From an uncultured bacterium (GTDB lineage: Bacteria; Oederibacteriota; JAAXVQ01; JAUVAV01), in contig CAVQBK010000003.1 in the NCBI GenBank assembly GCA_963710755.1, positions 885,211-949,210 on the forward strand: 64,000 nucleotides of DNA. Reading direction: 5' to 3'. Below, in pieces: positions 13,977 to 39,475 of the stretch (the stretch's first letter is position 1; each line of letters begins with the position of its first letter). Below the pieces are notes generated by a model that saw only the letters and a list, made by a program, of their open reading frames with translations, was not told the DNA's origin and did not search any database. The translations under genes and the position numbers were made by a program.

Positions 13977-16019
13977 ATGGTGGCTATGCTTTGGCCATGG
14001 ACCAGAAGTCAGCCCTCCATGAGCGCTGTGGTGGTCCTGGCGGGAATGCTGCTGGCCTGGGCATCACCAGCTTGGTCCTTGGTGCTGCTGGCCTTGGTGG
14101 CGCCTTTTGAAACTGCCCTGGAAATGCCGGTTTTAGGCACGGTTTATACGAGCGAACTGCTGCTGCTGGCTTTTGTGCCCGGCTGGTTTTGGAATGGGAT
14201 AACCCACCCCTCCTGGAGAAAACCTTTGGCCCCGGTGTGGTGGTGGGCTGCTCCTTTTCTCGTGCTGTTATTCTCCCAACTCCTTATTCATCCTGCTTCG
14301 GTTACCATCAAAGCTACCCTGCGTTGGCTTGAGTTTTTTATGGTGTTGCTGGCAGGCGTGCATTGGCTGCGCCGGCCTGGGCAAGCCTGGGCGGTATGGT
14401 GGGCCTTGTTGCTGGCCTTCAGCCTTAACAGTCTCATGGGCCTTGGACAAACCTGGCAGGGCCGGCTGCATTGGCCCGGATTGCTGACCTGGTCCACCGC
14501 TTTTGGCGAAGTGGTGCGTGCTTCCGGAGAATATGGTCCCAACACCCTGGCAGGGGTAATTGCCTTGGTGTTGCCCTTGGGGTTGGCCTTTTTTTTATTT
14601 CATCCCAGCCAAGCGGTTAAACGGCTGAGTTATGTGCTGGTGCTCTTATTGGCAGCTGGATTGGCAGCTACTTTTTCCGTTATCGGCTATACCAGCGCAG
14701 CACTGGGCGTGGTCTTTTTGGCACTGATGCTCAACCCCAAGCCGCGCCGTATGGCTGTTTATGCAGGCTTACTGGTGCTGCTGGGCCTGACGTTGGTGGT
14801 GGCCCTGAATTCTGAAGCCGCCCTTGCAGCCCTCATTAAAATCAAGAGCGCCTCTTTGGCGGACCGGCTGGGCTATATGCAAGTGGCCGGCCATTTGCTG
14901 GCTGGCCATCCCTGGTGGGGTATTGGGCCAGGGTGGTATAAAACCCTGGCCTTGACCTGGCGCCATCAGGAGTTGAACATCATTGGGCTCATTACTCATC
15001 CTCATGCCTTGTGGCTGTTGGTGTTGGTTGAAAACGGCATCCTCGGATTGGCGGCATTGCTCTGGGGTTTGGGACAGGCGGCTTCCTATATTATAAGAAA
15101 AGCTGCTCACCGTCGTAACCCCATGCTTTGGGCCGCTTGCGCCGGTTTAGTGGCTGTGGCTTTCCTTAATCTGGGAGAGCAGGGCCTGGTCCATGACCGG
15201 GGCGTGCACGTGGCCCTGGCCTTGGCCGCGACGTTGGTGTTGGTTACTAAAAAGGCCTTCCCCCAAGCCATGGCAGCAAAGCATTGTTTTGAGCACCAGT
15301 GGCGGCAGCATGGGCAACACCTTGACTGGGCCAAACAACTGGAAGAGCGCCGTCAAGGCCGGCAGGTGCTCTATAAAGTGCTGGATCAGGCCCTGGCCGG
15401 ACCGAGGCCGGCCAAAGTCTTGGAATTGGGTTGTGGACCGGCGCTGGATGCATTGCATCTTTCACAACGCAACCGTCTGGACGTACATGGTCTGGACAGC
15501 TCTCCGGCAGCCTTACAACTGGCCAGGGAAGCTTCCCAAAAGGTGCAAAGGCCGCTGACACTGCACCACGGTGATGCGCGCTGCACGGGATTGGCGGCCC
15601 AAAGCTTTGACCTGATCTTTTCCCAAGGCCTGTTGGAACATTTTAAAGATCCTGACCCGGTGTGGCAGGAGATGGACCGGCTGCTTAAGCCGGGCGGCGC
15701 GGTGGTGGTGGATGTGCCTCAGACCTTTAATCCCTATACCCTTATCAAATGGGGTCATCGCCTGAAAGGCACCTGGCCCTGGGGCTGGGAAACCCAATAT
15801 ACGCTAGGGCAGCTCAAACGTGCTGGTCAGATTCTGGGGTGGAAAGTTAAAACCGCGCATGGCTACGGCTATCGTCAAGGTGCATGGGACATCACTTATA
15901 GAATTAGACAATGGGCACAGCCGTACTGTCCCCGCTGGTGGGCCCGGATGGAGCAAACCACGGGCGCATGGTGGATGATGAATGTGGTGGTGCTCTTTGA
16001 AAAAGGAAAATGCTCATGA
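13977..16019 (+). CDS. Fusion protein: Wzy/O-antigen-ligase-like polytopic membrane domain plus a C-terminal class I SAM-dependent methyltransferase
   Basis: The longest ORF runs 13842..16019 but overlaps the upstream ORF. The first in-frame ATG after the upstream stop is at 13977 (IMVAMLW). The N-terminal roughly 430 aa are Trp-rich with about 10 TM helices. The C-terminal roughly 250 aa carry VLELGCGPALDALHL (motif I) and ...LLKPGGAVVVD (Methyltransf_11/25-like). Confidence 0.6.
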   Translation: MVAMLWPWTRSQPSMSAVVVLAGMLLAWASPAWSLVLLALVAPFETALEMPVLGTVYTSELLLLAFVPGWFWNGITHPSWRKPLAPVWWWAAPFLVLLFSQLLIHPASVTIKATLRWLEFFMVLLAGVHWLRRPGQAWAVWWALLLAFSLNSLMGLGQTWQGRLHWPGLLTWSTAFGEVVRASGEYGPNTLAGVIALVLPLGLAFFLFHPSQAVKRLSYVLVLLLAAGLAATFSVIGYTSAALGVVFLALMLNPKPRRMAVYAGLLVLLGLTLVVALNSEAALAALIKIKSASLADRLGYMQVAGHLLAGHPWWGIGPGWYKTLALTWRHQELNIIGLITHPHALWLLVLVENGILGLAALLWGLGQAASYIIRKAAHRRNPMLWAACAGLVAVAFLNLGEQGLVHDRGVHVALALAATLVLVTKKAFPQAMAAKHCFEHQWRQHGQHLDWAKQLEERRQGRQVLYKVLDQALAGPRPAKVLELGCGPALDALHLSQRNRLDVHGLDSSPAALQLAREASQKVQRPLTLHHGDARCTGLAAQSFDLIFSQGLLEHFKDPDPVWQEMDRLLKPGGAVVVDVPQTFNPYTLIKWGHRLKGTWPWGWETQYTLGQLKRAGQILGWKVKTAHGYGYRQGAWDITYRIRQWAQPYCPRWWARMEQTTGAWWMMNVVVLFEKGKCS

Positions 16020-17119
16020 ACATCTGTTTGATCAGCGGTTCTTTTCCGCCCGCTCGTTGCGGCGTGGGCGATTATACGGCGCGGCTGGCCAGCGCCCTGG
16101 CCCAAGAAAAACATCAGGTGGTGGTGATCACGTCCGCAGGCCGGCCAACCGCGGATTTCACGGCCATGACCGTAAGACCGGTGGTGAAACATTGGGGCCT
16201 GGCAGGCATGAGGTCTTTGTTCGCGGTGCTCCAACCGCTCCATCCTGATGTGGTGCATGTGCAGTATCCCAGCACCGGCTATGGTAGGGCCCTGGGCATT
16301 AATATGTTGTTTATATTATTAAAATTAATGCTGCCCCATGTCCAGCGGGTGATCACCCTGCATGAATACGAGGTCTTTTCCTGGAAAGGGCGCCTGCGGC
16401 TTTGGCTGACCGTGAAAACCGCTCATAAGGTAATATGCACCAATCATCACGATGCCACGCTCCTGAAAAAACGCATGCCGCGCCTTAAGCTGCAGGTGAT
16501 TCCCATTGGTAGCAATGTGGGTGAAAAAAACCAGGCTCAGCAACCCCTGCCGGCAAACGGTGAAGTCATGCAATTGCTGCATTTCGGCACGGTCATGCCC
16601 AACAAAGGCTGGGCCACAATGATCGCCGCCTTGGAAGCCCTTGCCGCCCGCGGTCTTCAAGCCAGACTGACCGTGATGAGCAGCCTCGAGGGCAAAGCCT
16701 ATCTTTATCACCAAGAGGTGGCAAGCATGATCGAGCGGTCCTCCGTGGCTGCCTGGATTAGGTTTACAGGGTACTTGGATGAAGCAGCCCTTGCTGCTTT
16801 GGCCGGGAATGACGACATTGTGGTGCTGCCCTTCAGCAACGGCCTGCGTCTTAACCGGGGCAGTTTTGTGGCCATGCTGGCCTATGGCAAAGCCATTATC
16901 ACCACCGAGCCGCCCTTTGAAATTGAAGGTATGGCCCATGGCCAGATCTGCTGGATGGTGCCGCCTGGTGATGCCGCAACCTTGGCTGAAACCATCATAC
17001 GGCTATGGCATGACCCTCAGACGCGCCGGCAACTGCGCGCCCGGGCGGCGGTGGCGGCCAAGCGGTTTGCCTGGCCGGTCATTGCTCAAAAGACACTTGC
17101 GGTCTACGGCGCCATGTAA
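16010..17119 (+). CDS. GT4 family glycosyltransferase
   Basis: 369 aa with N-terminal MNICLISGSFPPARCGVGDY and a C-terminal Glycos_transf_1 region (...VVLPFSNGLRLNRGSFVAMLAYGKAIITT). Confidence 0.8.
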   Translation: MLMNICLISGSFPPARCGVGDYTARLASALAQEKHQVVVITSAGRPTADFTAMTVRPVVKHWGLAGMRSLFAVLQPLHPDVVHVQYPSTGYGRALGINMLFILLKLMLPHVQRVITLHEYEVFSWKGRLRLWLTVKTAHKVICTNHHDATLLKKRMPRLKLQVIPIGSNVGEKNQAQQPLPANGEVMQLLHFGTVMPNKGWATMIAALEALAARGLQARLTVMSSLEGKAYLYHQEVASMIERSSVAAWIRFTGYLDEAALAALAGNDDIVVLPFSNGLRLNRGSFVAMLAYGKAIITTEPPFEIEGMAHGQICWMVPPGDAATLAETIIRLWHDPQTRRQLRARAAVAAKRFAWPVIAQKTLAVYGAM

Positions 17120-17218
17120 GTGCGGATACCACACAACGCTATCTTCTTTCCCCGTTAAGCGGGCTCCTAGGAGCCTGTCGGACTTTTTCGTTTGATGATA
17201 TGGTATAATAACGAAGTT

Positions 17219-17257
17219 TCCCCCTTTTGCAAAGGGGGACCAAGGGGGATTTGATAA
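17219..17257. repeat. Left terminal inverted repeat of the insertion sequence (contains the palindrome ccccc-tttgcaaa-ggggg)
   Basis: See the mobile_element entry. The internal hairpin is cccccttttgcaaaggggg. Confidence 0.6.
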
Positions 17258-17632
17258 ATGATTTTAACCTACCATCGCGGCCTCAAACGAAACTCGCAGG
17301 TTCTCAGGAATAACATGACCGAAGCTGAAAAGCATCTATGGAAACGGCTTCGCGGAAAACAAATTGGCGGTTTGCAATTCTATCGGCAAAAAATCATCGG
17401 CAACTACATCGTGGATTTTTTCTGTCCCAAAGCAAGCCTGGTAATTGAACTGGATGGCGGTCAGCATTATACCGACGATGGAATCCTCCGCGATGCGGAA
17501 CGTGACCGTTATTTGAAAACGCAAGGCTTGCAGATATTGCGTTTTTCCGATCGCGACGTGTTCATAAACACGGAAGGCGTCTTGAAGCAAATCCTGGCTC
17601 AAGCTTGCCTGCAAAGCAGGGAGGCATTATGA
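17258..17632 (+). CDS. DUF559 (Vsr-like, very-short-patch-repair-type) endonuclease domain protein
   Basis: 124 aa: ...NMTEAEKHLWKRLRGKQIGGLQFYRQKIIGNYIVDFFCPKASLVIELDGGQHY... matches the DUF559 consensus. Its stop overlaps the transposase ATG (ATGA at 17629-17632), implying co-transcription and translational coupling. Confidence 0.8.
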   Translation: MILTYHRGLKRNSQVLRNNMTEAEKHLWKRLRGKQIGGLQFYRQKIIGNYIVDFFCPKASLVIELDGGQHYTDDGILRDAERDRYLKTQGLQILRFSDRDVFINTEGVLKQILAQACLQSREAL

Positions 17633-18993
17633 GTTTTGTTCCCTGCGATCGTGATACGAATTTTTTACTGCCGCCATCGTTGAATGATTGGCTCCCAGTC
17701 AATCATTTGGCGCGGTTTGTAACGGAAATTGTCGCCTAACTTGACTTGACGAAGTTAAAAGAATCATATGCGGGGCGGGGATCGTCGGCCTATCATCCTG
17801 AAATGTTGCTGGCTGTGCTGGTGTATGGATATGCCACGGGCCTATTCTCGGGCCGTCAGCTGGAACGCAGCACTTATGATTCGATAGCTTTTCGTTATCT
17901 GGCGGCAAACACCCATCCCGATCATGATACAATAGCCCAATTCCGCAAACGATTTCTCCCCGAATTGGAATCATTATTCGTACAAGTCCTGGTCCTGGCT
18001 CAGGACATGAAACTATTGAAGCTCGGTAAAATCAGTTTGGACGGGAGCAAGGTTCATGCGAATGCATCAAAACATCGTGCCCTTTTCTGGGGACATGCCA
18101 ACAAGATAGAGAAGCAACTCCGGGCGGAAGTGAATCGCCTATTGCAACTGGCCGAAGCAGCCGATGAGGCCGACCAGCCTGACGGGATGAACCTGCCCGA
18201 TGAGCTGGCTCGTCGCGAAGATCGCTTGGCTGCTATTGCCAAAGCCAAAGCAGCCATCAAGCAACGAGCCGTTGAACGTGACCAACAAGCCCAAAAAGAG
18301 TATGAACAGAAGCTGACCGAGCGTCGTGAGCGTGAAAATAAAAGAGGTCAAAAATCCCGCGGTCCAGAACCACAACCGCCAAGCGATAAAGGCCCACAAG
18401 CAAAAGATCAGGTTAACCTGACCGACGGCGAGTCGCGCATCATGCCTGTTTCCGGTGGCGGGTTCGAACAAGCTTATAATGCGCAAGCCGGGGTGGACAT
18501 GGAAACGATGTTGATAGTCACTGAGCATGTTACTCAAGCGACCAATGATAAAGAACAACTTGAGCCTGCACTTGTGCAATTAACCGCTCTTCCAGAAGAG
18601 CTGGGAAAGGCAAAAGCATTGGTGGCAGACAGCGGATACTTTAGCCAAAGCAATGTTAAACTTTGCGAATCCAAGGGGATCAAACCATATATTGCCAACA
18701 GGCGGGAGCAACACTACCCATCGCTAAAAAAACGTTTTTCAGGACCACCGCCGTTGCCTGAACGTGCTGATGCGGTGGAAAGAATGAAGAGGCGGTTGCA
18801 AATGCCAGCTGGCCGAAAACTGTATGCCCGACGTAAAAGCACGGTTGAGCCGGTATTTGGAATTATTAAATCTGCCATGGGCTTTCGCCAGTTCATGCTG
18901 CGAGGTTTGCAAGCTGTCAGCAGCGAATGGACTTTGGTCTGTCTGGCTTGGAACATGAAGCGGCTGCACGGGCTGAAATCATCTCAGGTATAA
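17629..18993 (+). pseudogene. IS1182/IS5-family DDE transposase interrupted by an in-frame TAA at 17737-17739
   Basis: The ATG at 17629 gives MSFVPCDRDTNFLLPPSLNDWLPVNHLARFVTEIVA*. The same frame then continues as LDLTKLKESYAGRGSSAYHPEMLLAVLVYGYATG... (listed ORF 17746..18993, TTG start). Family consensus here is ...EIVEQLDLSEL..., so a Gln codon (CAA) appears mutated to TAA. A C-terminal DDE region (DSGYFSQSNV...) is present. Confidence 0.7.
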
Positions 18994-19029
18994 TCAAATC
19001 CCCCTGTATCCCCCTTTGCAAAAGGGGGA
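18990..19029. repeat. Right terminal inverted repeat of the insertion sequence
   Basis: ttatcaaatcccccctgtatccccctttgcaaaaggggga. It is the inverse of the left repeat. Confidence 0.6.
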
Positions 19030-19163
19030 AAAAGCATATAGGTGCAGTTATTAATGGAGACGCAACATACATAAGGTTTTTAATGATTTTAAGTCCGACA
19101 GACTCCTGGACAATAAACTAGACAATAACTATACGATATGCTATAGTCCGGCATGGAGGGAAC

Positions 19164-20171
19164 ATGTATAAACCGACCTACCGGATAACGGAAATTTTTC
19201 TGGCTTGTATTGAAAAAATTGCAACCCTGCAAGCAGAGATCAAAAAAAGTCATATCCATCTGCCCCTGTTGCTGCGCTTGCAAAAAGAAGCCTTTAACCG
19301 CAATGTTCATTCTTCAACCTGGATTGAAGGTAATCAACTATCACTCCAACAAGTTGCGGCCTTACAGGAAGAAAAGGCGGTCCGGGCCGACGAACGCCAG
19401 AAAAAAGAAGTAAAGAACTATATTAACGCGCTTCACTGGGTAATAGACCATGCTGCCCAAAAAATTGATGAGCGTGATTTATTGAGATTGCACAAGATGA
19501 TTACCCAGGATCTGGTGCCCGAAGAAAAATGTGGAAAATACCGCAAAGTTCAAAACTATGTTGTTGATGGACAAAAAAAGGTTGTTTACACACCGCCGCG
19601 AGCTTCTTTGGTTCCCAAAGTGATGCATGAATTAATTGAATGGCTTGAGAAAGAAAAAAAGCTGAATGCCGTTATTGCCAGCGCTATTTTTCATCATCAG
19701 TTTGTGACGATACATCCTTTCTCGGATGGGAATGGTAGAGTGGCCCGGGCGGTATCATTATGGATCTTATATCAAAGGAAATATGATCCTGTTCATATCA
19801 TGGCGCTCGATGAATACTTCGCTAATGATCGTGAGGCCTATTACCTGAAAATAACACAAGCCAGAGAACGGGATGAAGATCTTACTTATTGGCTTGATTA
19901 TGTGGCTAAAGGTGTTTTGGAAACTCTGGAAAATACGGTGCGCCGAATTTACCAAATGGCCATATCGCCTAAACAAGATATTTCTCTTTCGGATAAGCAA
20001 GAACTGCTCATTAACTTTATTAAACAGAATGCAGGGTGCAGTTCCAAGGAGATTGGGCTAGCATTAAAGGTTAATCGGGCAAGAGTCAATCAATTGATTA
20101 CACCTTTGGTGAAAGCGGGCATTGTTAGTATGGAAGGAAAAGCAAGAATGACAAAATATTATTTACAGTGA
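19164..20171 (+). CDS. Fic family protein (class II: N-terminal inhibitory helix, Fic core, C-terminal winged-helix domain)
   Basis: Canonical Fic motif HPFSDGNGRVARAV. The inhibitory motif STWIEGN ((S/T)xxxE(G/N)) lies upstream of the core. A C-terminal wHTH-like tail is present (...KEIGLALKVNRARVNQLITPLVKAGIV). Local GC is about 40%, far below the flanks. Confidence 0.85.
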   Translation: MYKPTYRITEIFLACIEKIATLQAEIKKSHIHLPLLLRLQKEAFNRNVHSSTWIEGNQLSLQQVAALQEEKAVRADERQKKEVKNYINALHWVIDHAAQKIDERDLLRLHKMITQDLVPEEKCGKYRKVQNYVVDGQKKVVYTPPRASLVPKVMHELIEWLEKEKKLNAVIASAIFHHQFVTIHPFSDGNGRVARAVSLWILYQRKYDPVHIMALDEYFANDREAYYLKITQARERDEDLTYWLDYVAKGVLETLENTVRRIYQMAISPKQDISLSDKQELLINFIKQNAGCSSKEIGLALKVNRARVNQLITPLVKAGIVSMEGKARMTKYYLQ

Positions 20172-20324
20172 GTGTTTGCTGGTTTCCAGATAGGGCCGGT
20201 TTTATGAGAAGGATCAGTATAGGTGAAGAACGGAGCAGTGGAATAGATAACGCTATGGTTTTCGTAAAGATTAAAATAGTATCAATAACCATTGAGATTT
20301 ATCTTTAAAAGCAGAGGCCTTGTT

Positions 20325-21443
20325 ATGAAAATCGCCGTTATCTCCCACAGTGCGGTCGTGCCCTTATACCGTGAAAAATTTCATCTTCTGGCCCAACAAG
20401 GTCTGGAGGTGCACTTGATCCTGCCCGCAGGCTGGCCCGAGGGCAGTCGGTGGATCAGCGCGCCAGCGCCTGGCTTGGAAGCCGGTATCACGGTTCATGT
20501 GCTGCCAGGGTTGGGACTGGGCCGGGTCGGCGGTTTTTACTTGAAGGGCCTGGCCGGTTTGCTAAGGCGGTTGAAACCGGACTTAATTCATGTTGAAGAA
20601 GAACCGTACGGTGTGGCCTGCTGGCAGGCCATGCAGGCTGCCCGCCGGTTGGGCTGTCCCTGGCTGTTTTTTACGTGGGAAAATATTTTGCGGCCCTACC
20701 GCTGGCCCATGGCTGCCATTGACCGCCAGGTCATGAAAAAATGCCAGTGGGCCATTGCCGGTAATCAAGAGGCCAGGGACATCTTAATGCAGCGCGGTCA
20801 CCGGGGCACGCGAGTGGTCATTCCCCAGTATGGGGTAAATCCTGAAGTGTTTAAAAAACAAGACCAGTCAAGGCCAACCGCGGGCATGCCGCTTCGCCTG
20901 GCCTATTGCGGCCGTCTTTTAAAAGAAAAAGGCATTGAAACCCTGCTTCAGGCTGCGGCCAAACTGCAGGGTGAATGGCAATTAACCATCAGAGGCAACG
21001 GCCCTCATGCCATGGCGCTGCGCGCCCTGGTTCGTGACCTGGACCTGGACTCGAGGGTGAACTTTGAAGAGGCTGTGTCCAACAGCGCCATGCCGCAAGT
21101 GCTGAATCAAATCGATGTCCTTGTGCTGCCGTCCTTAACCACCACCCATTGGAAAGAACAATTCGGCCGCATATTGATTGAAGCCATGAGCTGTGAAGTG
21201 GCGGTTATCGGCAGCTATTGCGGTGAGATTCCGCATGTGATCGGGGAGGCAGGTCGACTGTTTCCGGAAGGCAATGTGCAGGTCTTGCATGACCAGCTTA
21301 AAGCCTTGAGGGAAGATTCGGCTTTGCGGGAAAACTTGGGACGCTTGGCCCGCCAACGGGTGGAAGCTCACTTTACCACCGCCAGGATCGTGGAAGCCAC
21401 CGTAGCGCTTTATCAAAAAATGATGGCAGGGCAGAATCCATGA
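20325..21443 (+). CDS. GT4 family glycosyltransferase
   Basis: The ATG at 20325 (MKIAVISHSAV) is preceded by GCAGAGG. A C-terminal Glycos_transf_1 region is present (...EAMSCEVAVIGSYCGEIPHVIG). Confidence 0.8.
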   Translation: MKIAVISHSAVVPLYREKFHLLAQQGLEVHLILPAGWPEGSRWISAPAPGLEAGITVHVLPGLGLGRVGGFYLKGLAGLLRRLKPDLIHVEEEPYGVACWQAMQAARRLGCPWLFFTWENILRPYRWPMAAIDRQVMKKCQWAIAGNQEARDILMQRGHRGTRVVIPQYGVNPEVFKKQDQSRPTAGMPLRLAYCGRLLKEKGIETLLQAAAKLQGEWQLTIRGNGPHAMALRALVRDLDLDSRVNFEEAVSNSAMPQVLNQIDVLVLPSLTTTHWKEQFGRILIEAMSCEVAVIGSYCGEIPHVIGEAGRLFPEGNVQVLHDQLKALREDSALRENLGRLARQRVEAHFTTARIVEATVALYQKMMAGQNP

Positions 21444-39037: not shown

Positions 39038-39475
39038 ATGGCCATGCTCATGGTGGGCCTAAGCGGGTGCAGCAGCCTCATGATCTCCCCACCTGATCGG
39101 GAGACCTCCCAGGCCATCGTGGCGTTGGCCAGGACCCAAATAGGCAAGCCCTACCGATATGGGGGCCGTGGGCCTGCCGGGTTTGATTGCTCCGGGCTGG
39201 TGTATTATGTGTACAAAAAAATCATGAAAATGCGTCTGCCCAGGACCAGCGCCGGTCTGTATGCCTATTCCAAACCAATTCCCTTGGGCCAGGAACAACC
39301 GTCGGACTTGCTTTTTTTCCGCATTAACGGGAACCGTATTTCCCACGTGGGCATCTATTTGGGCAAAGGTCGATTCGTTCATGCCCCTTCACGTGGAAAG
39401 CATGTAACCATCTCCAATGCCAATGACCGCTACTGGCGGAAACGTTTCGCCGGTGTGCGGCGTCTGTTGAGGTAA
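39038..39475 (+). CDS. NlpC/P60 (C40) family peptidoglycan endopeptidase lipoprotein
   Basis: The start at MAMLMVGLSGCSS (lipobox LSGC) is preferred. It carries the catalytic Cys in GFDCSGLVYYVY and a downstream His (ISHVGIYLG). Confidence 0.8.
   Translation: MAMLMVGLSGCSSLMISPPDRETSQAIVALARTQIGKPYRYGGRGPAGFDCSGLVYYVYKKIMKMRLPRTSAGLYAYSKPIPLGQEQPSDLLFFRINGNRISHVGIYLGKGRFVHAPSRGKHVTISNANDRYWRKRFAGVRRLLR

Follow-up and report, generated by a model that had tools for sequence, protein, structure and literature searches.

A probable merger of an IS1182-family insertion sequence with a DUF559 nuclease gene and its triplex-type repeat modules

Introduction

In a 64,000-nt stretch of DNA from an uncultured bacterium of the Oederibacteriota (contig CAVQBK010000003.1, positions 885,211 to 949,210; hereafter the window, numbered from its first base), two inverted copies of a hairpin repeat of about 40 bp bracket a gene for a DUF559 (Vsr-like) endonuclease and, translationally coupled to it, a gene for a DDE transposase that is interrupted by a single stop codon. 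A preliminary description of this locus took the hairpin repeats for the ends of an insertion sequence (IS) reaching from 17219 to 19029, and the palindrome within each repeat for the recognised hairpin or the insertion target. The locus raises the question of what these repeats are, and of what a nuclease gene is doing between them and beside a transposase. We find that the IS extends beyond the hairpin repeats on both sides, and that each repeat contains a 34-nt module of a kind that recurs around DUF559 genes elsewhere. Our reading, which we consider probable and which is built on comparison of sequences, is that the window holds a copy of an IS1182-family element that has merged with a cassette of DUF559 nuclease and triplex-type repeats and kept it under selection, this particular copy being disabled by the stop codon.

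Results

Ends, copies and target of the element

Eight short metagenome contigs (L001-L008), found by exact-sequence look-up, encode a DUF559 protein identical to that of the window. Aligned with the window by blastn, they are 99.0-99.4% identical to it, and only between 17163-17168 on the left and 19107-19110 on the right. The flanks of seven of them (L001-L006 and L008; 99.2-99.4% identity) differ from one another, and all eight carry the DUF559 gene within the matched stretch. From these limits of similarity and the differing flanks it follows that the element occupies 17171-19105 and measures 1,935 bp, and that the unit that moved is bounded by outer repeats and CTAG and contains the DUF559 gene.

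The true left terminal inverted repeat is GAGCCTGTCGGACTT (17171-17185, plus strand), with pairing that reaches 17169, and the true right one is AAGTCCGACAGACTC (19091-19105, minus strand), just inside the point at 19107-19110 where the similarity between copies stops; in the repeat search of the window, 17169-17185 and 19091-19107 matched at 16 of 17 positions. The other copies are laid out as CTAG, GAGCCTGTCGGACTT, the body of the element, AAGTCCGACAGACTC and CTAG again. In the window, as in nearly every other copy and relative, CTAG precedes the left repeat (17167-17170) as the target tetranucleotide or a target-site duplication; on the right (19106-19109) the window reads CTGG, base 19108 being G and not the A of the other copies. 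In relatives retrieved from genomes and metagenomes, CTAG adjoined the left end in about 67 of 72 cases and the right end in 44 of 46. Eighty genome loci encode transposases 56-66% identical to that of the window, and nearly all of them have the outer-repeat core, TGTCGGACTT, at the ends of the element or close by. As far as such alignments can tell, then, the ends used in transposition are the outer 15-17-bp repeats next to CTAG, and CTAG is the insertion target. The 40-bp repeats cannot keep the role of element ends that they had been given, since the copies match from about 17165 to 19110 and end at the outer repeats and CTAG, and the palindrome gives way to CTAG as the target. CTAG on both sides of the element is palindromic, and a 4-bp duplication, a 2-bp TA duplication or no duplication at all fit it equally.

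Several copies stand in unusual surroundings. The element of L007 (99.0% identity) has its right end joined to its own left end through one CTAG; this junction (...GACAGACTC-CTAG-GAGCCTGTC..., in 1-1237 of the contig) may represent a tandem dimer or a circle junction, or may have arisen in assembly, and the contig terminates in a 77-nt repeat resembling an assembler artefact. In L001 we found a 160-bp miniature inverted-repeat transposable element (MITE) in which the outer repeats of the IS surround a gene-less doublet of modules, predicted to fold as single-stranded DNA at -42 kcal/mol (z -8). In the same contig (1-552), a gene fragment that looks, by reading, like the C-terminus of an IS66-type transposase lies just upstream of the IS and MITE, and in two relatives of the element, L089 and L091, ends of other insertion sequences abut the same CTAG. 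The contexts of L001, L089 and L091 suggest pile-ups of mobile elements. In the window itself, the 47 nt from the stop codon of the preceding GT4 gene to the IS (17120-17166) end in ...TTAAGCGGGCTC directly before CTAG, which resembles a decayed right end of the same IS/MITE family (TTAAGTCCGACAGGCTC followed by CTAG); the IS of L001, L002 and L006 likewise abuts the end of a related MITE. New copies may favour CTAG beside old element ends.

Two modules face inward from either side of the coding region

The repeats themselves are real: the repeat search returned an inverted repeat of 39 nt with 92% complementarity (17217-17255 and 18993-19031), each arm of which holds a 19-nt near-palindrome, CCCCCTTTTGCAAAGGGGG, that occurs nowhere else in the 64 kb (0.07 chance matches expected). 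The left module occupies 17219-17252 on the plus strand (T-C5-T4-GC-A3-G5-A, then CCA, then A-G5-ATTT), a hairpin plus a mirror G-run, and the right module is its inverted copy at 18996-19029 on the minus strand (AAAT-C5-T, then GTA, then T-C5-T3-GC-A4-G5-A). A covariance model scored them at 59.3 bits and, on the minus strand, 59.0 bits, and the triplex finder gave n=8 for each. In-silico folding, which covers the hairpin part of the module only, yielded -9.1 kcal/mol as single-stranded DNA for the left and -8.8 to -9.1 kcal/mol for the right. Across the window the covariance model found these two modules and nothing else, and a generic search for triplex blocks added one marginal match at 39075-39104 (n=6, one mismatch), unlike the modules in sequence and probably due to chance. 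No Rfam family matched the modules at E up to 1.

The modules sit tightly against the coding region. The second G-run of the left module doubles as the ribosome-binding site of the DUF559 gene, 8-9 nt before its ATG, and the right module starts 3 nt past the transposase stop codon. Upstream of the left module, TGGTATAAT (17201-17209, plus strand) reads as an extended -10 element and is a putative promoter, from which transcription would begin near 17216, where the left hairpin has its foot; TGnTATAAT occurs at the matching place in L089, L090, L091, L094 and L096. A consensus promoter scan, which needs a -35 element, did not list 17201-17209. A role of the hairpins as intrinsic terminators was considered and rejected, there being no T-run after the stem on either strand and no terminator listed by the scan at the modules.

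The modules accompany stand-alone DUF559 genes

Outside insertion sequences, the nearest homologues of the DUF559 protein (63-67% identity, 115 aa) are encoded by stand-alone chromosomal genes that lie between leuB and asd, and these genes show a hairpin followed by GGGGGATTT both before the start and after the stop; DUF559 genes between resB and ccsA carry modules too. We surveyed 80 metagenome loci retrieved with the DUF559 alignment. Searched with a strict module pattern, they held 77 modules at up to 250 bp from the gene (2.05 per kb) as compared with 14 in the remaining 306 kb (0.046 per kb). Position and orientation were stereotyped: a plus-strand copy begins 33-58 nt upstream of the aligned gene start, its GGGGGATT(T) sitting a few nucleotides before the ATG, with the second G-run 4-13 nt before the ATG in loci other than that of the window, and a minus-strand copy starts 2-35 nt past the aligned gene end.

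A sequence-agnostic search, defined by a pyrimidine block, a Watson-Crick purine block and a mirror purine block, detected an upstream plus-strand module in 49 of the 80 loci, a downstream minus-strand module in 46 and both in 37. The orientation ratio was 50:9 upstream and 49:18 downstream, and modules numbered 4.6 per kb up to 250 bp from the gene, versus 0.14 per kb elsewhere on the same contigs. An IS1182 transposase or outer repeat was present in none of these 80 loci. We therefore re-assign the 40-bp repeats as what appear to be DUF559-associated modules of triplex type, independent of any IS1182 element; judged by this distribution, the modules are a hallmark of DUF559 genes and not of IS1182 elements.

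Modules also occur in larger arrangements. The resB-ccsA locus L183 has three plus-strand modules, the DUF559 gene and four minus-strand modules, and longer tandem arrays are present in L156. These arrays (L156, 4750-5810; L183, 2350-3010) run head to tail with a period of about 45-47 nt, always facing the DUF559 gene, and L156 has a second kind of array, whose units are hairpins only and recur about every 30 nt. Gene-less module doublets were found in L001, L097 and L099. We saw no conserved promoter directly upstream of the module in the chromosomal cassettes. Among the protein calls, P0129 (216 aa), P0131, P0135 and P0137 read through a module, which yields PPFAKGG and GDEGGFD before the DUF559 domain, and P0129 consists of two DUF559 domains joined across a module; these calls point to further cassette arrangements. 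In L183, a Y1_Tnp gene (IS200/RAYT-type; 181-846) lies 1.6 kb upstream of the DUF559 cassette with its nested arrays, and an HUH enzyme might conceivably work on the hairpins of these arrays.

Covariation extends from the hairpin to the mirror G-run

The consensus of 101 modules is T-CCCCC-TTT-NNN-AAA-GGGGG-AT-NN-A-GGGGG-ATTT. Covariation was computed on the 150 best covariance-model matches. The 9-bp hairpin is 97.1% paired, and five of its nine pairs show compensatory change (C-G to U-A, 90 cells), a result matched by none of 500 shuffles. Where the stem has T-A for C-G, an A also stands in the second purine run at the position counted from the 3' end, that is, in mirror register. The combinations (C,G,G) and (T,A,A) numbered 111 vs 24 at position 2, 136 vs 6 at position 4 and 64 vs 52 at position 6; the triple change occurs at five positions (1, 2, 3, 4 and 6) with intermediates rare, and an adjacent column (T14, A56, A77) also fits.

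Of 110 cases counted in the mirror register, an A in the first purine run was accompanied by one in the second in 98, a number reached by none of 2000 shuffles, as compared with 3 of 110 in the direct-repeat register and 12-30 of 110 in slid registers. The idea that the second G-run is a direct repeat ('iteron') of the first was dropped on this same comparison (3/110 vs 98/110). In a purine-motif triplex whose third strand is antiparallel, C:G:G and T:A:A are the triples that are isomorphic, and their equivalents on the complementary strand are C+.G-C and T.A-T. The covariation of the modules is thus the pattern expected of an intrastrand DNA triplex. Two of the private transitions of the window copy, at 17219 and 17240, fall in its left module; the C-to-T change at 17219 turns the (C,A,A) column of the other copies into (T,A,A) and so restores the outermost pair or triple.

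The nuclease gene is an integral and selected part of the element

The DUF559 gene (17258-17632, plus strand, 124 aa) encodes a protein of PD-(D/E)XK fold that matches PF04480 with E 9e-35 (119.3 bits, gathering score 20.6) and the structure PDB 3HRL with E 9e-20, or 4e-26 with an alignment profile; the same profile reached PDB 3R3P, the mobile-intron protein I-Bth0305I, at E 0.0036. D53, E64, D66, Q69 and H70 are invariant across 16 DUF559 sequences, and the fold family suggests a catalytic role for them. The domain matches of the protein did not include the Vsr family proper (PF03852), and the neighbouring genes that were scanned (16010-17119, 19164-20171 and 20292-21443) include no cytosine methyltransferase. 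A defence-system scan (PADLOC) returned for the DUF559 protein a weak local DpdF match only (E 5.5e-9, 55 residues), plus a marginal match to a methyl-directed restriction enzyme.

The DUF559 stop codon overlaps the start of the transposase gene in ATGA (17629-17632), as previously noted, and the ribosome-binding site of the latter, GGGAGG, lies at 17619-17624, 4 nt before the start. The transposase gene (17629-18993, plus strand, 454 codons), scored with its in-frame stop replaced by Gln, matches the IS1182-family model NF033551 at 366.1 bits, above the curated cutoff of 270 (E 3e-109), in line with its earlier assignment; PF01609 (E 6e-19) and PF13751 (E 3e-15) cover the DDE domain, and PF05598 (DUF772) matches too.

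Closer relatives, with transposases 75-81% identical to that of the window, differ in what they carry. L090, L095 and L096 (about 79%) have a DUF559 gene at the same place, with stop and start overlapping or abutting. L091-L094 have the same ends and the internal modules, and a 51-nt leader instead of DUF559; L091, L092 and L093 are one element at three separate sites. L089 (81%) has the outer repeats only, without modules and without DUF559. Presence of the gene varies among IS lineages with 75-87% identical transposases, and in the 80 genome loci with transposases 56-66% identical we found neither a DUF559 gene within 3 kb nor internal modules. The co-occurrence of DUF559 and transposase that the preliminary description proposed to look for holds for L090, L095 and L096, and not for L089, L091-L094 and the 80 distant loci.

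Between the DUF559-bearing IS lineages, the synonymous divergence (dS) is about 0.6 or higher, and the ratio of nonsynonymous to synonymous divergence (dN/dS) of DUF559 is 0.08-0.14, as compared with 0.06-0.10 for the transposase and 0.10 for chromosomal DUF559 paralogues. A dN/dS this low over considerable divergence argues that the nuclease gene has been kept functional inside the IS. Together with its presence in eight of eight other copies and the same coupling in four diverged lineages, this supports the proposal that DUF559 is an integral part of the mobile unit. Local alignment of the 51-nt leader of L091 and L094 gave no significant sign that it is the remnant of a deleted DUF559 gene, 43-472 of 500 shuffles aligning as well or better. 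The history of the gene could have been either a single gain followed by loss or repeated transfer.

The stop codon is present in other copies

A TAA at 17737-17739 (plus strand) replaces CAA (Gln37) according to the reading frame and the alignment of copies, and the frame is otherwise open, as had been reported. The window and L005 have T at base 17737, and the remaining copies read (L001-L004, L006 and L008) have C, so that six of the seven other copies read keep CAA; Gln stands at codon 37 in six of six aligned relatives, and L001-L004 have intact 454-aa transposase genes. L005 has a left flank unlike that of the window and private differences of its own, and has 18624G, 18726A and 18764G in common with the window; the window copy has seven private transitions, all in its left half. 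The 90% transposase cluster contains three distinct open reading frame (ORF) calls of 396 aa, the length called when translation starts downstream of the TAA: one identical to the window, one on a 368-kb contig, and L005. P0264 is called as the same shortened 396-aa ORF, from the ORF call alone and not from DNA.

The TAA allele thus occurs in at least two, probably three, diverged copies. It is therefore no slip of sequencing, and it is not confined to the window copy. It would have been either copied elsewhere by transposase acting in trans or spread by recombination. The recent C-to-T inactivation proposed earlier stands as a CAA-to-TAA change, and its restriction to this copy does not. Since the TAA severs the conserved N-terminal 36 residues from the rest, loss of transposase function is likely, and the nonsense codon probably makes the window copy non-autonomous.

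Surroundings of the element

To the right of the IS, 19164-20171 encodes a Fic-domain protein with a C-terminal winged helix that matches the SoFic anti-phage model (PADLOC, E 1.3e-60). The gene lies in a low-GC stretch (0.38-0.44 vs 0.55-0.60 around it) that extends from the IS to about 20300, and from this we infer that the IS is part of, or next to, a larger foreign insert between two GT4 genes. GT4 genes do stand on either side, as described before, though not directly, the Fic/SoFic gene intervening on the right. A promoter-like sequence (TAGACA-17-TATAGT with an upstream TG; 19119-19147) lies just outside the right end of the IS, before the Fic gene.

Discussion

A proposed nuclease and repeat cassette inside a DDE transposon

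We propose that the element moves as one unit through a DDE transposase that would act on the outer repeats, with the chemistry of its family. The conserved extended -10 promoter would drive a two-gene operon, DUF559 and then transposase, bracketed by the two inward-facing 34-nt modules, each with a pyrimidine run, then a loop and a purine run, and after a 2-3-nt linker a mirror purine run. An IS1182 lineage would have merged with a DUF559/triplex-repeat cassette and retained it under selection. The association, position and covariation of the modules suggest that DUF559 is most probably a structure-specific DNA endonuclease that binds or cuts them, as a REP-associated transposase does REP hairpins or a homing endonuclease its site. 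With CAA changed to TAA at codon 37, the window copy could move only with transposase supplied by intact copies.

The nuclease and the repeats may form a selfish unit of their own. More tentatively, and as a possibility rather than an expectation, DUF559 together with C5T3/A3G5/G5AT3 modules could represent a widespread, undescribed class of selfish cassettes in which the nuclease recognises, nicks or spreads the repeats; if so, the window element would be a fusion with a DDE transposon outside and a nuclease/triplex cassette inside.

Several observations weigh against the merger that we propose. The link between DUF559 and the modules is an association, and both the triplex and the action of the nuclease are putative. 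Module variants are possibly related by descent, so that the covariation counts overstate the number of independent events. No flanking module was found in 22 of the 80 DUF559 loci. L091-L094 keep both modules without DUF559, which means that modules can persist without the nuclease in cis, and L089 lacks modules and DUF559 alike, so that neither is needed by insertion sequences of this clade. In the IS, moreover, the right module follows the transposase gene and not DUF559, a nested arrangement that the proposal leaves unexplained, and the MITE of L001, made of outer repeats and a doublet, means that modules could have a role at IS ends.

Alternative explanations

The alternatives that we weighed each appear less well supported than the merger with a cassette. 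The one that survives best, though we think it unlikely, places the modules in messenger RNA, where 5' and 3' stem-loops would stabilise the transcript or control translation and the inverted symmetry would permit the two ends to pair. It accommodates the predicted transcript start at the foot of the left hairpin, a second G-run that stands at the distances of a ribosome-binding site here and in the other loci, and a right module directly after the stop codon. However, the mirror covariation of C:G:G with T:A:A exceeds what Watson-Crick folding of RNA predicts, and purine-motif triplexes are reported to be absent in RNA (PMC4666352). Chromosomal cassettes without a conserved promoter directly upstream of the module, and modules without an Rfam match, also argue against this explanation, and neither tandem arrays nor gene-less doublets would be expected of elements in untranslated regions.

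Slightly less likely again is that the modules are subterminal sites in cis for the transposase or a host factor, DUF559 being an ordinary passenger and the chromosomal units decayed insertion sequences. The symmetry of the modules about the IS interior suits such sites, as does their presence in the DUF559-less L091-L094 and in the MITE with outer repeats. Against this, no trace of the transposase or of an outer repeat was seen in any of the 80 metagenome DUF559 loci, and the distance of the modules is fixed with respect to the start and stop of DUF559, not to the IS ends. The 80 IS1182 relatives (56-66% identity) and L089 do without modules, and tandem module arrays surround stand-alone DUF559 genes.

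We regard as improbable a TnsA-like function, in which DUF559 would be a second nuclease that cuts the non-transferred strand or the target beside the DDE transposase and so alters the route of transposition, in the way of TnsA with TnsB in Tn7. A PD-(D/E)XK-type fold and translational coupling to a DDE transposase in four diverged lineages under purifying selection would agree with it; but L091, L092 and L093, with the same ends, transposed without DUF559, the nearest DUF559 homologues are stand-alone chromosomal genes without a transposase, and domain, PDB and profile searches of DUF559 revealed no similarity to TnsA.

It is just as doubtful that DUF559 is a true Vsr-type T:G mismatch endonuclease, a cargo that benefits the host and has no relation to the repeats. 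Source databases label the protein 'very-short-patch-repair endonuclease', a Caulobacter DUF559 protein behaves in a Vsr-like manner (PMC12907096), and the IS junctions read CTAGG, which fits the E. coli Vsr site CTWGG, with CCAGG on the bottom strand at the right junction of the window. Such a repair enzyme would leave the stereotyped flanking modules unexplained, however, no cytosine methyltransferase gene adjoins, and the searches returned PF04480 and no Vsr-family match. A change from CTAGG to CCAGG (bottom strand, 19106-19109) has the direction of very-short-patch repair, and a coincidence or a different original target is possible. Least credible of all is that the 38-40-bp hairpin repeats are the terminal repeats of an IS at 17219-19029, with the palindrome as recognised hairpin or insertion target: their length (39 nt, 92%) and their place directly against either side of the coding region speak for it, but the identity of the eight copies continues at 99% beyond these repeats, by about 50 bp on the left and about 80 bp on the right, it is the outer-repeat core and not the module that the 80 distant IS1182 relatives have in common, and L089 is an IS without modules.

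Significance

As an IS1182-family element the locus is ordinary, and the correction of its ends is routine. It is unusual for the passenger of an IS that the nuclease gene has remained coupled to that of a DDE transposase, under purifying selection, while the proteins diverged by about 20%. A conserved module flanks DUF559 genes at fixed distance and orientation in many unrelated metagenome contigs, and the covariation of that module agrees with base triples in addition to base pairs. Bacterial repeats of the intrastrand triplex type were already known in the 1990s, and a link between them and genome instability has been drawn; if DUF559 and the modules do form the wider class of selfish cassettes considered above, the orphan BoxC/PIT/TM triplex repeats would gain an enzyme partner. 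Pairing nuclease and repeat in this specific and testable way would make the matter accessible to experiment, and one of the commonest 'domains of unknown function' would acquire a function. What is new is a member of the IS1182 family with a passenger gene, a nuclease-transposase coupling, internal triplex-type modules and a wider pairing of DUF559 with modules. The searchable literature yielded no report of the coupling, of the internal modules or of the pairing, nor of DUF559 as an IS passenger or of repeats linked to DUF559 or ycjD.

Comparison with known systems

The element resembles other members of the IS1182 family in passing the curated cutoff, in its DUF772, DDE_Tnp_1 and DDE_Tnp_1_6 domains, in its short terminal repeats and in being multi-copy; in the ISfinder description the family ranges from 1.33 to 1.95 kb, which puts this 1.94-kb element at the top. 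It differs in the coupled DUF559 ORF ahead of the transposase and the paired 34-nt internal modules, and in this copy by the nonsense interruption. Insertion sequences with passenger genes go by the name of 'transporter IS' (tIS; Siguier and colleagues). Like these, the present element has a non-transposase gene inside its inverted repeats that is mobile with the IS; unlike them, its nuclease passenger brings its own conserved flanking repeats, which bracket both genes. Tn7 likewise has a gene for a nuclease of restriction-enzyme fold (TnsA) beside that of a DDE transposase (TnsB), but no sequence relationship between DUF559 and TnsA was detected and close relatives of this IS manage without the nuclease.

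Vsr, the homing endonuclease I-Bth0305I (3R3P) and DUF559-type proteins share a fold group (PMC3424549), and the window protein matches 3HRL, a DUF559 protein of Neisseria. In contrast to Vsr and I-Bth0305I, the window DUF559 has no intron or intein context and no adjacent methyltransferase gene, and is known here from its sequence.

The modules have their closest structural counterpart in the BoxC/PIT/TM_ECO repeats, whose blocks are ordered as a C-rich stem, a loop, a G-rich stem, a 3-nt loop and one further G-rich stem (Holder et al. 2015, PMC4666352). In vitro, TM_ECO adopts a triplex structure; E. coli K-12 has 23 copies of it, and it has been associated with instability of the genome. 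The authors of that survey report no mobility function or enzyme near these repeats, and point to evidence that RNA does not adopt purine-motif triplexes (PMC4666352). The block order is the same here, both kinds of repeat are intergenic, repeated and sometimes clustered, and the covariation of the modules fits G.G-C and A.A-T triples. The modules differ in sequence, with C5T3/A3G5/G5AT3 as compared with CCCTCNCCC/GGGNGAGGG in TM_ECO, and in forming inward-facing pairs around a nuclease gene. Those of the window do not fit the TM_ECO consensus CCCTCNCCC-N3-6-GGGNGAGGG-N3-GGGNGAGGG, and this difference in sequence makes the modules an analogue of TM_ECO and not a member.

E. coli K-12 has a DUF559 gene of its own, ycjD, in the order fabI-ycjD-sapF (L184, 21030-21850). 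About 170 nt downstream of it stands CCCCTCGCCCCTCTGGGGAGAGGGTTAGGGTGAGGGG, which fits the TM_ECO/BoxC pattern; we recognised this repeat by eye against the published pattern, and the triplex finder gave no match in the ycjD region because the BoxC pyrimidine block contains a G. The gene is also trailed by a partial duplicate of its own 3' end. At the fabI-sapF site other phylogroups carry the eefRABCD efflux operon where K-12 has ycjD (PMC12817139). For about 38% of complete E. coli genomes, coverage of the query by the best match at the ycjD locus is below 80%; among the rows sampled, the match is confined to the first 214 query bases, and uropathogenic E. coli 536 has eef efflux genes, not ycjD.

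In overall design the DUF559 cassette comes near the REP/REPIN-RAYT system, in which, too, one small gene for a DNA-cutting enzyme is flanked by inverted hairpin repeats, with gene-less doublets and clustering in intergenic regions. It is set apart by its enzyme, which is of PD-(D/E)XK (Vsr-like) and not of HUH Y1 type, and by the third, mirror block of its repeat. By this analogy, the cassette may work as a REPIN-RAYT system does, though it is not a member of that class.

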